From positions 1-61,892 of the forward strand of contig JACDQK010000078.1 of NCBI GenBank assembly GCA_015657645.1: a DNA stretch of 61,892 bases, in the 5' to 3' direction. The notes beneath the pieces are model-generated. The model was not told the origin of the DNA, searched no databases, and saw nothing but the letters and a program-made list of their open reading frames with translations. This DNA comes from Novosphingobium sp. (lineage in GTDB: Bacteria; Pseudomonadota; Alphaproteobacteria; Sphingomonadales; Sphingomonadaceae). Each line of letters begins with the position of its first letter. The stretch's first letter is position 1. The translations under genes and the position numbers were made by a program. This document shows, piece after piece, positions 1 to 28,553 of the stretch.

Positions 1-1
1 C

Positions 2-181
2 GCGCGCGGCGTGGGCGTGCCGCCTTTGGCCAGGATCCGGGCGATGCTCGCGGCCAAGGCCAGCGCCAAGCCGACGGGCGAACTGGCCGCGCTGAGCGGT
101 GCCGGGCCGGCTGACTGGAACGGCGTGCCCCCGGCCGTGCAACGGCGCCGGCAGGCCTTGAAGGCGATGAAACCACAATGA
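2..181 (+). CDS. 3' end of an upstream polysaccharide-locus gene (partial, product unknown)
   Basis: Open frame from the window edge (ARGVGVPPLARIRAML...KAMKPQ*). Its TGA overlaps the ATG of the next gene (ATGA at 178-181). Confidence 0.55.
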   Translation, partial: ARGVGVPPLARIRAMLAAKASAKPTGELAALSGAGPADWNGVPPAVQRRRQALKAMKPQ

Positions 182-1431
182 CGGGTTTGGGGCGAGCGCC
201 AATTCTGCTGTTTCATCCGGGCAAGCAACATAGCCCGCAAACAGCGCTAGCTTTGCAGCGTCTGGGCCGCTTGAAAACCTACGCAACATCCATTTTCTAT
301 GATCGTGACCGATTCCCTTACTGGTTAGATCGCATTCCCGGCCACCTTGGGCGGCGACTGCATGCAGAGTTTAGCCGCTTCGCCCACCCTGAGATTGATC
401 CCGCATTGGTGAAAACTTGGGGTATGGCTGAGTGGCTTGAAAGAATTGCTCTAAGACTAGGTGCAATTCACTTATCATATCAGCTCGACAGACTCGGCAA
501 TCGCCTTTTCGCGAAGGGCTTGGTAGAAGAAATATCCTCGGATCAAGAGTTCGCTCTTTGGGGCTATAATGGGTCCTCTGTTGAAGCGTTTCGCATTGCG
601 AAAACCGCTAACCGAGTTTGTATTCTGGATCGAACGATTGGGGACTACAGATACTTCAATGAGGTGATGGCTCAACAGCAGGAATTGTATCCTAGGTATT
701 TTGAGCGTGACGAAAGATTCGTCCCTGAGGACAGGATCGAAATCGACGACCAGGAATACTCAATGGCAGATCATATTGTCGTTGGGTCTGATTACTGCAA
801 GAATACGATCGTAAAATACTCCGGAATTGAAGGCGTCGAAAACAAAATATCGGTATTGCCATATTGCGTTAACAACCATGATTTTATCTCTAGAGCAGAT
901 GGCCAGAGATCGACGCCGCAAGGGCCAATCAAATTCATCTTCGTGGGCCGAATAACCCCGAGAAAGGGGATCCACATATTGCTGGAAGCGTTCTCGAAGT
1001 TGCCTCCGGGGGCTGCTACTTTGACACTGCTGGGCAAAATGCTCATTCCGACCGACGCTTTTGCTCCTTATGCGGATAGGGTCGAGCATATCCCTTCTGT
1101 CGCGCCTGCGATGGTTGCTGAGGTCATGGCCAGGCATCACGTCCTGGTCTTGCCGAGCTTTTTTGAGGGTTCGGCCATTACGTTGCTTGAAGCTCTATCT
1201 TGCGGGCTCGGCATTATCCAATCTCCACAAGCGGGTAATGGGGCTAATCAGGACACTGGCATGGTCCTTAAGCAGAACACCGTCGAAGAGCTCTATGATG
1301 CTTTGCTGTACGCTGTGGACAATCGGGATCTCGTTGGTCGATGGATGAGTGCGGCAATAAGCGATGAAGATCGCTACTGCTTTGAGGGGTATCAGTCACG
1401 GGTCTCAAAGTTCATCGATAAAATTGAATAA
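178..1431 (+). CDS. Glycosyltransferase family 4 (GT-B fold)
   Basis: FIFVGRITPRKG and LPSFFEGSAITLLEALSCG (ExxxxxxxE) motifs; HPGKQHS N-terminus; AT-richer than the flanks. Confidence 0.9.
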   Translation: MTGLGRAPILLFHPGKQHSPQTALALQRLGRLKTYATSIFYDRDRFPYWLDRIPGHLGRRLHAEFSRFAHPEIDPALVKTWGMAEWLERIALRLGAIHLSYQLDRLGNRLFAKGLVEEISSDQEFALWGYNGSSVEAFRIAKTANRVCILDRTIGDYRYFNEVMAQQQELYPRYFERDERFVPEDRIEIDDQEYSMADHIVVGSDYCKNTIVKYSGIEGVENKISVLPYCVNNHDFISRADGQRSTPQGPIKFIFVGRITPRKGIHILLEAFSKLPPGAATLTLLGKMLIPTDAFAPYADRVEHIPSVAPAMVAEVMARHHVLVLPSFFEGSAITLLEALSCGLGIIQSPQAGNGANQDTGMVLKQNTVEELYDALLYAVDNRDLVGRWMSAAISDEDRYCFEGYQSRVSKFIDKIE

Positions 1432-2273
1432 TGATTGAAGCCCTGTTGATCATAACTGCGATTTTTATTTTGGCGGAATTAATTGTTCGCCGAAAGAAAG
1501 CTGCAGACTATATTGTATATAGTTCGAACCAATTTTTCGGATATTGTCCGAAGCCGATGTCATCTGGCTTGATGCGTGGACGCTATGACTGGTATATTAA
1601 TGAAATCGGTCTCCGCACCCATCATCGTTGTACCGAAATAAAAGGCGCTATTGCCTTGGTTGGCGATAGCATTGTCGAGGGTGGTTCTTATGTAAGGCAG
1701 GGTGAGACTTTGTCTTATCTGATCGAGAAGAAATTAGAACGCATTGTACATCCAATCGCAGCGAGTGGTTGGAGTTTATCCAATGAAATTGAATTCATAA
1801 AACAAAACTCCATGTTTCTTGAAGCTAGGCTTATCATCATAGTCGTGAATTCAGACGACTTGTGTGATGTGAACCCATGGTCAAGTGAATTCACACATCC
1901 TACGAAAACCCCGCTTTTCCGGTTGGTCTATTTGGTTAGAAGATTGGGGTGGCCCTATTTTTACAGGCTGAAGCATCGCACTAAGCCAGAAGCGTCGTCT
2001 GACGCCTGGATGACTCGCGTGCGATGGCTTCAAGAGCATGATGGAGCGCAATTGATCTGGGTGCTTTATCCAAATGCGGATGAATTGGTTGAAGGGGCGC
2101 GGCCTTGTGCAGCACTCTATGATGCTTTGGGCGCAGGGGCGGTGATTGTCGATCTTTCGGACCAAGTCGATTGGCAGCCAGATTGTTATGCAGATCGTCT
2201 GCATCCTAACGCTAAGGGCCGGGGCGTCTTGGCAAGCGTGATTGCGTCAGTGGCCGAGCGCGCAAGTTACTGA
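1431..2273 (+). CDS. Membrane-anchored SGNH/GDSL family esterase or O-acyltransferase
   Basis: N-terminal TM helix, block I VGDSIVEG, block III NSDD, block V DRLHPN. Confidence 0.75.
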   Translation: MIEALLIITAIFILAELIVRRKKAADYIVYSSNQFFGYCPKPMSSGLMRGRYDWYINEIGLRTHHRCTEIKGAIALVGDSIVEGGSYVRQGETLSYLIEKKLERIVHPIAASGWSLSNEIEFIKQNSMFLEARLIIIVVNSDDLCDVNPWSSEFTHPTKTPLFRLVYLVRRLGWPYFYRLKHRTKPEASSDAWMTRVRWLQEHDGAQLIWVLYPNADELVEGARPCAALYDALGAGAVIVDLSDQVDWQPDCYADRLHPNAKGRGVLASVIASVAERASY

Positions 2274-2288
2274 GCATAAAGAGGTATT

Positions 2289-3050
2289 ATGGATTTCTAC
2301 GTCAACACGCTCCGAACGCTGGTCAAAGAGGGCAAGATTGATCCGTCTGCGTCGACACTTGTTGTCGCGGGTGGTCCAAAAGATCGCGATGCTCTCATCT
2401 CCGCTGGATTCAGCAACGTGACCATCTCGAATCTGGATGTCCGGATGCGAGGCGATGAGTTCACGCCCTATGGATGGGCATTTGTTGATGCAGAAAACAT
2501 TCCTTTCGAATCTGATAGCTTCGAGAACGTGATCGAGCACATGGGACTTCACCATTGTGGTTCGCCTCACCGAGCTCTACTCGAGATGTACAGGGTGGCG
2601 AAGTCTTCGGTTGTTGTGTTCGAGAACCGCGAATCTTGGACGATGCGGCAGGCGGTCCGATTCGGAGCCGTGCCATCATTCGAACTCGATGCTGTTCGGG
2701 GTAACGATTATAAATTTGGCGGCTTTAGGAATACCAGCACTCCGAATTTCGTTTACCGCTGGACTGAGAGAGAAGTCGAAAAGACTATACTTTCAGCTGA
2801 TCCAAGTTATCTTAGCAAGATAGATTTCTTTTATAATCTTCGATTCCCGGAAGCGAGAATACAGGCGCTGCAAGGGATAAAGAAGTTGATATTTAAGGCT
2901 ATGCGAATGCCTTTTGCGATTTACGCAACGCTGCTTCCTAAGCAGGCTAATGAGTTTGGATTCTTTATCTCCAAGCGGGATAGGAAACTGCAGAGGTGGA
3001 TCGATGTAGAGACGGGCGGCTTATCTCCTGAGTTTATCGGCCAGGGCTGA
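2289..3050 (+). CDS. Class I SAM-dependent methyltransferase
   Basis: LVVAGG motif I variant; DAENIPFESDSFE; GLHHCGSPHRALLEMYRVAK; RBS GAGG upstream. Confidence 0.8.
   Translation: MDFYVNTLRTLVKEGKIDPSASTLVVAGGPKDRDALISAGFSNVTISNLDVRMRGDEFTPYGWAFVDAENIPFESDSFENVIEHMGLHHCGSPHRALLEMYRVAKSSVVVFENRESWTMRQAVRFGAVPSFELDAVRGNDYKFGGFRNTSTPNFVYRWTEREVEKTILSADPSYLSKIDFFYNLRFPEARIQALQGIKKLIFKAMRMPFAIYATLLPKQANEFGFFISKRDRKLQRWIDVETGGLSPEFIGQG

Positions 3051-21981: not shown

Positions 21982-21985
<4 letters not shown>
21485..21985 (-). CDS. lptE: LptE-family outer-membrane lipoprotein
   Basis: Lipobox LSACGLQPMY; lies between leuS and holA. Confidence 0.85.
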
Positions 21986-24571
<2,586 letters not shown>

Positions 24572-26125: not shown

Positions 26126-26851
26126 GTGATGGCAAGAGTGGCAGTGGTTACCGGCGGTACGCGCGGGATTGGCGAGGCGATCTGCCAGCGGCTCAAGCGC
26201 CAGGGCCACCAGGTCATCGCCAACTATGCCGGCAATGAGGAAAAGGCCCAGGCCTTCACCGCCGCCACCGGCATTCCCGCCTATCGCTGGGACGTGGGCG
26301 ATCACGAAGCCACGCTGGAAGGCTGCGCCCGGGTCGAGGCCGACTATGGCCCGATCGATATCGTCATCAACAACGCCGGGATCACCCGCGATGGCACCTT
26401 GCACCGCATGAGCTTCGACGACTGGAACGAAGTGATGCGGATCAATCTGGGCGGCTGCTTCAACATGGCCAAGGCGGCCTTCCCGGGCATGCGTGAGCGC
26501 GGCTGGGGCCGGATCGTCAACATCGGCTCGATCAATGGCCAGGCCGGACAATATGGCCAGGTCAACTATGCCGCCGCCAAGTCCGGCATCCACGGCTTTA
26601 CCAAGGCGCTGGCTCAAGAGGGCGCGAAGTTCGGCGTCACCGTCAACGCGATCGCGCCGGGCTATATCGATACCGACATGGTGGCTGCCGTGCCGGCCCC
26701 GGTGCTCGAGAAGATCGTCGCCAAGATCCCGGTCGGCCGCCTTGGCATGGCTGAGGAAATCGCCCGCGGCGTGGCCTTTCTGACCAGCGACAACGGCGGT
26801 TTCGTGACCGGCTCGACCATGTCTATCAATGGCGGCCAGCATATGTATTAA
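26126..26851 (+). CDS. phbB: Acetoacetyl-CoA reductase
   Basis: VTGGTRGIG, NNAGITRD, GQYGQVNYAAAKSG, INGGQHMY. Confidence 0.95.
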   Translation: MMARVAVVTGGTRGIGEAICQRLKRQGHQVIANYAGNEEKAQAFTAATGIPAYRWDVGDHEATLEGCARVEADYGPIDIVINNAGITRDGTLHRMSFDDWNEVMRINLGGCFNMAKAAFPGMRERGWGRIVNIGSINGQAGQYGQVNYAAAKSGIHGFTKALAQEGAKFGVTVNAIAPGYIDTDMVAAVPAPVLEKIVAKIPVGRLGMAEEIARGVAFLTSDNGGFVTGSTMSINGGQHMY

Positions 26852-27442: not shown

Positions 27443-27877
27443 CTAGTCCACGCTGATCCCGGTCATCTTCCAGCTACCGTTCTCCCATGCCATCTGGAGC
27501 GTTTCGACTGCTTCGCCCTTCTTGCTGTAATTCGCCTTGAACGCGATGATCCAGTAGCCGTTCGGCGGGGCCGGGATGAAATTTACCGTCGCAAGCTCGC
27601 GTGATGAGGCCGTGCCCACCTCGTCGCGCACCTTCTTTGAGGCGTCAGCCCACCATTCAACCGTGTTGTGCAGCTTGAACGATTGATGGGCCGCCTGCCA
27701 GCACGCCGCCCAGTCGTTGCGGTCGAGCTGCGCCAGGAACTGCCGGGCAGCATCCACGGCCGCAGCTTCGCTGGCTGGAGTCGCGCTAACCTTGGGCGGG
27801 GCGGCGACAGGCATGACGGGGGTCTGGCTGGTTCCGGACAGAGCGGACAGGGCGAGTAGAGCGAGCGTTGCAGACAT
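27443..27877 (-). CDS. Putative nested in-frame isoform: exported DUF4019-like domain alone (144 aa)
   Basis: GGAGGT-ttgacc-ATG inside the LuxR gene; product begins MSATLALLALSALSGTSQ (signal-peptide-like). Confidence 0.5.
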   Translation of the reverse strand: MSATLALLALSALSGTSQTPVMPVAAPPKVSATPASEAAAVDAARQFLAQLDRNDWAACWQAAHQSFKLHNTVEWWADASKKVRDEVGTASSRELATVNFIPAPPNGYWIIAFKANYSKKGEAVETLQMAWENGSWKMTGISVD

Positions 27878-28210
27878 GGTCAAACCTCCGAAGATCCAGC
27901 CGGTGCGGCGCGAAATGCCGCGACCTTGGGCTGGCTGAGGTGACATCTGCTGCGCTTGGTCCTGCGGGGCATCCCCCAAATCCTTGTCCCCCAGCAATTC
28001 GGGGGTCTTTCCCTCAGCCTCGCGCAGCAGCCGCGCCGCCTCGCGGCTGGAGGATGTGCCAAGCTTGCGCCGCGCATCGCGCAGCCGCTCATTGACCGTG
28101 TGGACCGACAAGCCAAGGCGCCGCGCCATCGATTTGGCGTCATAACCCTGCACCAGCAGGCGCAGCGTTTCTTTCTCCTTGTCGGTCAGGGACAGATGGC
28201 GCTGGGTCAT
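27443..28210 (-). CDS. One-component regulator: LuxR-type HTH + TM + periplasmic DUF4019-like domain
   Basis: LTDKEKETLRLLVQGYDAKSMARRLGLSVHTVNERLRDARRKLG; TM; AARQFLAQLD...W..A...ETL...WKMTG. Confidence 0.85.
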   Translation of the reverse strand: MTQRHLSLTDKEKETLRLLVQGYDAKSMARRLGLSVHTVNERLRDARRKLGTSSSREAARLLREAEGKTPELLGDKDLGDAPQDQAQQMSPQPAQGRGISRRTGWIFGGLTMSATLALLALSALSGTSQTPVMPVAAPPKVSATPASEAAAVDAARQFLAQLDRNDWAACWQAAHQSFKLHNTVEWWADASKKVRDEVGTASSRELATVNFIPAPPNGYWIIAFKANYSKKGEAVETLQMAWENGSWKMTGISVD

Positions 28211-28295
28211 GGCCGGGATGTAGGGGGCAGCCCAACCAGCGGCCACCCCAAATTTTTCGTAGGTGCCCGGACCAGCCTCGCGCTAAATCACCGCC

Positions 28296-28553
28296 ATGAC
28301 CACGCCGTTCCACCCCCCGATCAAGCGCTCGGTCGAGATTGCCGGGCACAAGACCTCGATCAGCCTTGAGCCGCTGTTCTGGGAACTGCTCAAGCAGGCC
28401 GCAGTGGCCGAAGGGCTGCCGATCAGTGCGCTGGTCGCGCGGATCGATTCCGAACGGATTGTCGCACCCACTCCGCCGGGGCTGGCGGGGGCGGTGCGGG
28501 TCTGGCTGGTCGGCTGGCTGGCGTCAAAGCTGGCTCAAGGCCAGACCGCCTAG
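28296..28553 (+). CDS. Ribbon-helix-helix domain protein (RHH_4-like)
   Basis: KRSVEIAGHKTSISLEPLFWELL...LVARID...LAGAVRVW. Confidence 0.85.
   Translation: MTTPFHPPIKRSVEIAGHKTSISLEPLFWELLKQAAVAEGLPISALVARIDSERIVAPTPPGLAGAVRVWLVGWLASKLAQGQTA

Follow-up and report, generated by a model that had tools for sequence, protein, structure and literature searches.

How might one gene supply both a membrane-bound transcription factor and a free copy of that factor's outer domain? The question is raised by a minus-strand gene in the window, our name for the whole 61,892-nucleotide stretch of Novosphingobium sp. DNA that was analysed. The original prediction read this gene as encoding a LuxR-type helix-turn-helix (HTH) domain, a transmembrane (TM) helix and a DUF4019 sensor domain, with an internal Shine-Dalgarno (SD) sequence for an exported, sensor-only isoform and an operator within the coding sequence that the regulator itself would bind. 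From comparison with relatives of the gene, we assign a probability of roughly 0.6 to a one-gene circuit in which an anchored GerE-type regulator would switch on a promoter lying within the gene, from which its outer domain would be made as a free copy.

The gene joins a LuxR-type HTH to DUF4019

The presence of a LuxR-type HTH and DUF4019 in a single gene was confirmed by Pfam matches to the two ends of the protein (Table 1). Eight families matched the full-length protein at E ≤ 0.1, GerE among them and the MerR model absent. The HTH begins at residue 7, and no autoinducer-binding family preceding it was found among the Pfam matches. The predicted structure of the full-length protein consists of the HTH, a linker of low confidence and an NTF2-like domain. 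Folds were assigned by use of Foldseek and re-alignment of its matches. The HTH model matched SdiA, VraR and GerE (Z about 11-12.6), and these matches are NarL/LuxR C-terminal domains. The DUF4019 model matched 4hyz (Z 13.3, rmsd 2.3, 107 aligned) and the N-terminal domains of PBP5 and PBP2a (Z about 11.5), a likeness of fold that by itself is no proof of function. In 80 relatives the TM region, as judged from the hydropathy profile only, is a run of ~20 uncharged hydrophobic residues downstream of an Arg-rich patch.

Table 1 Predicted features of the gene and its upstream flank, in window positions
Feature	Position	Strand	Basis
Full-length ORF, 255 aa: GerE HTH, linker, TM helix, DUF4019	27443..28210	minus	
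GerE/LuxR-type HTH, aa 7-61	28028..28192	minus	Pfam E 3e-10, above curated cut-off
DUF4019 domain, NTF2-like fold, aa 154-251	27458..27751	minus	Pfam E 6.5e-21
Hydrophobic segment W105-L124 after Arg-rich patch; predicted long-form anchor and short-form signal-peptide core	27839..27898	minus	Hydropathy and K/R profile
Internal SD GGAGGT, codons G108-G109	27884..27889	minus	GGAG at codon -4/-5 in 80/81 relatives
Predicted short product, 144 aa: M112, ~12 hydrophobic residues, Pro/Ala stalk, DUF4019	27443..27877	minus	
Upstream box, core C-R-A-N5-T-Y-G then GGG; predicted operator centred near -44	28246..28261	minus	Genome scan and family logo
Intragenic box unit 1, codons P70-D75	27988..28004	minus	Fixed synonymous sites
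Second intragenic unit (unit 2), codons D75-D80, 15 bp past unit 1, register as upstream box	27972..27988	minus	
Predicted main -35, TGGCCG	28240..28245	minus	Family logo T-R-G-C at +4..+7
Predicted main -10, TACATC, 6 nt before ATG	28217..28222	minus	T 50/56, A 51/56 at +27/+28
Predicted internal promoter, -35 ATGCCC, weak -10 at 27950-27944	27944..27972	minus	G +6 71/79, A +28 47/79

Elsewhere in the window, a gene at 21982-24526 (minus strand) that we take, from its sequence, to be leucyl-tRNA synthetase-like is split into two ORFs by a break near 23856-23888, which is probably an assembly frameshift. Positions 1-3050 are low in GC (50% in the first 2 kb vs about 67%) and contain ORFs that look by eye glycosyltransferase-, SGNH- and methyltransferase-like.

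The internal start site is conserved among relatives

Two sets of relatives were compared. The first comprised 112 DUF4019-type loci, reduced to 81 representatives less than 70% identical (median identity 45%), and the second 89 loci with non-DUF4019 cargoes, reduced to 54 representatives. The second set forms a separate HTH clade with support of 99/100 in a tree of 35 of the 81 and all 54 representatives (68 columns), and the sets are called clade 1 and clade 2 below. The relatives are not independent of one another, and binomial P values over them are therefore overstated.

The proposed GGAGGT is present at 27889-27884, six nucleotides ahead of an in-frame ATG at 27877 that would open a 144-residue product. 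The full-length start has no comparable SD, as had also been claimed: calculated pairing with the anti-SD is +2.2 kcal/mol at ATG 28210 vs -10.2 kcal/mol at 27877. Among the long, likely coding ORFs of this genome, GGAGGT stands at a spacer of 4-9 before 2 of 8204 internal Met codons. Across clade 1 the internal start recurs, with GGAG plus an in-frame ATG in 110/112 loci and 80/81 representatives, compared with 4/218 for the other Met codons of the same genes. When the site was set by protein alignment alone, Met was found in 81/81 and GGAG starting at codon -4 or -5 in 80/81. Of the synonymous conservation expected for the internal SD, the GGAG part is invariant in the family and the full GGAGGT is not. 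The Gly codon at -4 is GGA in 75/80 genes, the figure for other Gly codons being 185/1229 (15%). The segment around the internal ATG was the least structured of those tested, partly through T-rich codons. In clade 2, an SD-led start falls within codons 80-105 in 54/54 representatives (53 ATG, 1 GTG), compared with 13/348 control segments. The SD is read in three reading frames (34/3/1), and loci L132 and L148 have GTG in place of ATG. Two other Met codons, M89 and M133, were ruled out as alternative starts by weak or no SD pairing and lack of conservation.

It could be argued that the SD is incidental to Gly-Gly codons in the TM helix and that conservation within the gene reflects peptide constraint or, in the linker, an RNA hairpin. 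Peptide constraint gives no explanation for the choice of GGA, the frame changes of the SD or the GTG starts; the hairpin is considered with the linker. Given that the internal start is conserved, the gene very probably yields two products.

The upstream box recurs in the linker codons

The strings compared in the original prediction were found at 27972-28004 (linker) and 28243-28262 (upstream). Alignment of the family defined the upstream motif as a near-palindrome, C-R-A-N5-T-Y-G, followed by GGG-T-R-G. Synonymous conservation of the linker motif had been anticipated and was found: P70 is CCC in 73/79 genes (33% background), G79 of unit 2 is GGG in 71/71 (19% background) and G74 of unit 1 is GGG in 42/49. 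Position 17 is C in 77/79 and codon 75 has C as its third base, with six different amino acids encoded. Unit 1 reads PxxLGD in clade 1 and AQENRD in clade 2, where it lies one base nearer unit 2 and in a different frame. The near-fixed synonymous sites and the frame difference between clades argue that the DNA is conserved and not the peptide.

A search matrix trained only on 64 clade-1 upstream sites placed its best coding-sequence site in the linker in 69/79 clade-1 and 49/52 clade-2 genes (chance about 10%). In the Novosphingobium genome, the upstream box scored 29.3 bits, linker unit 2 scored 4.7 and unit 1 scored -5.4; hence the claimed resemblance of the linker to the upstream DNA holds in the family alignment but is modest in this genome alone. 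Scored with the clade-1 matrix, the upstream box was undetected in 16/81 clade-1 and 26/54 clade-2 genes, and such genes often have another ORF ending just upstream. The internal boxes could be anchored in 79/81 and 52/54 genes and persist where the upstream box is lost. In the clade-2 model the peptide over the box prolongs the last helix of the HTH, and in that clade some protein constraint may add to the box signal.

An RNA hairpin draws some support from clade 1, in which the linker RNA folds beyond shuffled sequences (mean z -2.3; 41/70 below -2) and there is slight covariation at one pair (60/2000 permutations). However, the clade-2 linker has no fold over shuffles (z -0.4, 4/52), Rfam returned no match at threshold and the upstream copy of the box precedes the predicted transcription start. 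Taken with the codon and frame data for the SD, these results leave a hairpin or peptide constraint strongly disfavoured and very improbable as the source of the conservation.

The box is probably read by the HTH of the same gene

In a genome scan the gene's own upstream box was the sole strong site, the next scoring 16.7 bits, and all 15 of 15 stand-alone cargo genes scored below 5 bits. The box could nonetheless have another reader, whether a global regulator, some alternative sigma factor or the product of the divergent RHH_4 gene at window 28296-28553 (plus strand), and the HTH would then act elsewhere. The RHH gene adjoins 35/81 clade-1 genes, 34 of these with the upstream box, and a paralogue in the same genome has an upstream box of just 12.4 bits, rank 12 of 41 sites above 9 bits. 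Another reader is hard to reconcile with a box that is the only strong site in the genome, is present without an RHH neighbour in 59 genes (31 + 28) and accompanies the gene to plasmids in acetic acid bacteria, or with a recognition-helix motif, NERL-R, that is nearly invariant in both clades. We consider it quite improbable. Because the genome has a sole strong site, the cargo genes score below 5 bits and the box occurs without RHH, the HTH likely recognises the box of its own gene, and direct binding by the HTH itself is probable.

In the sub-clade of the paralogue (L002; 10 genes), the upstream and internal flanks both depart from GGGG, which is one clade-level event. Covariation of the upstream and internal boxes was seen between clades only and was not convincing within clades. 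Concerning neighbours, phbB (window 26126-26851, minus strand) lies beside 33/81 clade-1 genes. Some 35 nt separate the RHH start from the upstream box, which might govern the RHH gene as well.

Promoters are predicted ahead of the gene and within it

Activators of the NarL/LuxR type bind at about -44. The layout upstream of the gene likely fits an activator site at that position, a sigma-70 promoter and a leaderless mRNA: the box is upstream of the predicted -35, and the predicted spacer is 17 nt with unconserved positions. A leaderless message is made likely by the short distance from the predicted -10 to the ATG. From the anchor G of the upstream box to ATG 28210 is 39 nt, the distance seen in most relatives; where a box was detected, the first start codon in frame falls at +39 to +42 in 41/58 and 30/33 genes. 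An SD precedes just 6/76 main starts. GTG 28246 was excluded as the gene start, as it lies inside the upstream box. There is a good likelihood, from this arrangement, that the long form is leaderless and weakly translated.

Downstream of unit 2, G is found at +6 in 71/79 genes and A at +28 in 47/79, spaced as in the upstream promoter. Of 40 offsets, those with the highest internal -10 score were +26 and +27/28 in the two clades, and the transcript start is predicted near 27937. The internal -10 is weak (9/79 above 2 bits at the peak, means negative), a consensus promoter scan gave 0 sites and, at the place of the T in the upstream -35, unit 2 of the window has A. Unit 2 and the internal start are always at least 63 nt apart.

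The main rival to the circuit is that both products are translated from one leaderless mRNA via the internal SD, the intragenic boxes being operators for auto-repression or a roadblock. Conservation of the SD, the start and the boxes would then be covered without recourse to the weak internal -10, and TipA is known to make two in-frame translation products (PMC6078987). On the other hand, a single mRNA does not call for unit 2 to keep the G at +6 and the A peak at +28 with upstream-promoter spacing, for the -10 score to peak at +26 to +28 in both clades, for room for a promoter plus leader always to be retained, or for the internal boxes to remain where the upstream box is gone. We regard the one-mRNA reading as unlikely and an internal promoter activated by the HTH as moderately likely.

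The predicted short product resembles signal-peptide proteins

In clade 1, the residues before the internal Met are conserved as an Arg-rich and then a hydrophobic stretch. The hydrophobic run is ~20 residues in the long form and about 12-15 after the Met in the short form. It is fairly likely that the short form is exported and that one hydrophobic stretch serves both products, as an anchor of 20 residues in the long form and a signal core of 12 in the short. Stand-alone DUF4019 genes encode proteins of 130-185 aa with signal-peptide-like ends, which the short form resembles, and stand-alone genes for the L002 cargo also encode such ends.

The same circuit could operate with a short product that is left uncleaved in the inner membrane, where it would pair with the regulator and so inhibit it. 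The short form is without the Lys/Arg n-region, a feature of 94/105 comparable N-termini in its own genome (crude filter), and no conserved cleavage motif is obvious in its residue profile; moreover, the unrelated folds of the cargoes suit a mechanism independent of one ligand. However, the post-Met hydrophobic stretch is short, the stand-alone homologues look like ordinary signal-peptide proteins although one (L125) is likewise without Lys/Arg, and L144 has no hydrophobic stretch ahead of its internal Met. Hence, we view an uncleaved, pairing inhibitor as improbable and return to export.

Queries with the HTH only recovered 160 loci, of which 151 were fused in frame to a cargo and 4 were cut by contig ends; the others comprised 4 with a break after the internal start and 1 with a linker frameshift. 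On the THN1 plasmid (L154, NZ_CP028348.1 1154300-1157200), insertion of a toxin-antitoxin-like pair splits the gene in the linker, and in this one case the HTH half has drifted with the boxes, SD, ATG and cargo intact. Both long and short products appear to be under selection. In ES2-1, a truncated copy beside phbB (L150) is without the HTH, the boxes and the internal start.

The cassette is found with several cargoes

Matches at E ≤ 1e-15 were present in 47/151 Sphingomonadaceae genomes. A class-wide draw gave 3/401 matched genomes, all Sphingomonadaceae, and the named matches were mostly sphingomonads plus a few Caulobacteraceae and acetic acid bacteria. In phage collections there was either no match or a single weak one. 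At E ≤ 1e-8, 2654 proteins match the first 90 residues, and some of them may be other LuxR-type proteins.

The internal-start design reaches past the scope of the original prediction to at least four other cargo types. In clade 2 these are a beta-rich domain, a two-cysteine alpha/beta domain and an Ig-like Big_5 domain, and a clade-2 cargo structure gave ribosomal S6-like matches (Z about 9, few comparisons). L177 joins a clade-1-like HTH to a cargo that is EF-hand-like by eye. The paralogue L002 in the same genome (G000:C82:7814-8650, minus strand) has a beta-rich cargo with no Pfam match in a cassette with an upstream box, a start at +39, linker boxes and an SD read as Lys-Gly.

Variants of the arrangement were also seen. 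In clade 2, P0169, P0170 and P0257 have doubled or mixed cargoes, the two-cysteine domain occurring twice or being followed by the Ig-like domain. L003:1468-1980, and also L151 and L153, encode a different, cargo-free GerE-HTH type with a TM helix at the C-terminal end; within the L003 linker (CDESAYQFSY) is a box-like dyad whose spacer is shorter, and the gene that comes next is small and on the same strand. This type may serve to drive a separate gene downstream. In G782 (L268, L287, L289, L290), five DUF4019 matches lie within 53 kb, four of them near-identical stand-alone signal-peptide genes, and the region, with its short unrelated low-GC ORFs, looks like an integron cassette array. Near-identical copies of the cassette occur on small contigs and plasmids of Acetobacter, Komagataeibacter and Gluconobacter (L107, L113, L114, L116, L117 and plasmid matches H5-H9), and the L148 copy, on S. 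granuli pRW412b, overlaps a resolvase gene beside a Tn3 transposase. These copies indicate that the cassette is mobile.

Discussion

The circuit that we propose would run as follows. The leaderless promoter would give little of the long form, a membrane-anchored GerE-type regulator that would sustain its own promoter via the upstream box. The regulator would also bind the tandem linker boxes and so switch on the internal promoter, and the SD-led short message would then yield abundant free cargo outside the membrane. The free cargo would probably remove the signal sensed by the anchored copy. Our suggestion as to purpose is more tentative: the circuit may serve negative feedback, in which the induced free copy soaks up an envelope ligand or partner sensed by the anchored domain, much as TipAS acts in the cytoplasm.

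A wider class of one-gene envelope homeostats, widespread in sphingomonads and accepting any exported protein as cargo, seems possible, at a little short of even odds. The cassette would consist of a leaderless promoter, a GerE HTH, a tandem operator in the linker, an intragenic promoter and an SD in the TM codons. Its hydrophobic helix would double as anchor and signal peptide, and the cargo would be both the sensor of a membrane transcription factor and that factor's own induced, freely exported effector.

If this is correct, a predicted operator, promoter and ribosome-binding site are kept within coding sequence to an extent that dictates the linker peptide, and a large group of genes would have a second, unannotated protein. 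In the literature searched, DUF4019 was named in one paper, which lists it as unknown. A reporter of the internal promoter would reveal the inducing signal and thereby help to find what DUF4019 and the other unnamed cargoes do. The cassette would also be a natural design for a plug-in biosensor.

Comparison with known systems

TipAL/TipAS of Streptomyces lividans and AlbAL/AlbAS of Klebsiella oxytoca each come from a single gene whose HTH is N-terminal and whose sensor is C-terminal, and are described as a long, self-upregulating regulator plus a short in-frame sensor-only product that sequesters the ligand (PMC6078987; bioRxiv 10.64898/2026.09.21.753095). The ligand in that group is an antibiotic. 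In the case of AlbA the two forms were assumed, and the 2018 paper gives their in vivo identification as still to come (PMC6078987). The present gene likewise encodes an HTH and a sensor, and is predicted to give a short, in-frame, sensor-only product. However, TipA and AlbA are soluble MerR-family proteins and the AlbA operator spans the -35 and a 19-bp spacer. The present protein has a GerE-type HTH set apart from its sensor by a TM helix, and its short form is predicted to be exported; the gene carries the box ahead of the predicted -35 and again, as a tandem pair, within the ORF, with a cargo that can be exchanged. Neither a MerR HTH with a coiled coil (no MerR Pfam model; NarL/LuxR structural matches) nor an operator overlapping the -35 and a 19-bp spacer (predicted spacer 17 nt) was found in this gene. 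Its HTH family and operator position thus put it outside the TipA/AlbA/NolA MerR group.

The nolA gene of Bradyrhizobium has a second, NolA1-dependent promoter. Its in-frame ATGs give NolA1, NolA2 and NolA3, of which NolA1 controls the other two (PMC5596368). The present gene would be like nolA in giving more than one in-frame product, and control of the short form by the long one is predicted here from the placement of the box. NolA differs in being of the MerR family, and no membrane anchor or exported product is described for it in the passage of that review consulted (PMC5596368).

LuxR quorum-sensing receptors have an N-terminal autoinducer-binding domain that is absent here. HigX, a LytTR protein, was ruled out as a relative. 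The periplasmic partners of ToxR/CadC-type regulators, ToxS, TcpH and VtrC, are encoded by separate genes, whereas here a copy of the sensor is nested within the regulator gene. A transmembrane transcription regulator consists of a DNA-binding domain and a TM region (PMC10269533), both of which are predicted here, and the main text of that survey makes no mention of GerE, LuxR or DUF. Internal in-frame initiation gives a differently targeted isoform for E. coli speA, bamA and ivy (bioRxiv 10.1101/520783); those short forms lose a signal sequence, whereas here the short form is predicted to gain one from the middle of a TM helix.

In the literature searched, largely main texts outside the subscription journals, we found no description of a GerE-DUF4019 dual-product system. 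To that extent the original prediction's statement that none was known for the family stands, and its one-gene circuit gains from the synonymous conservation, the internal start and the likeness of the linker to the upstream DNA; the general long/short design, however, is not unprecedented, being known from TipA, AlbA and NolA. If true, the present circuit would carry the idea of those three systems across the membrane and into a new HTH family.
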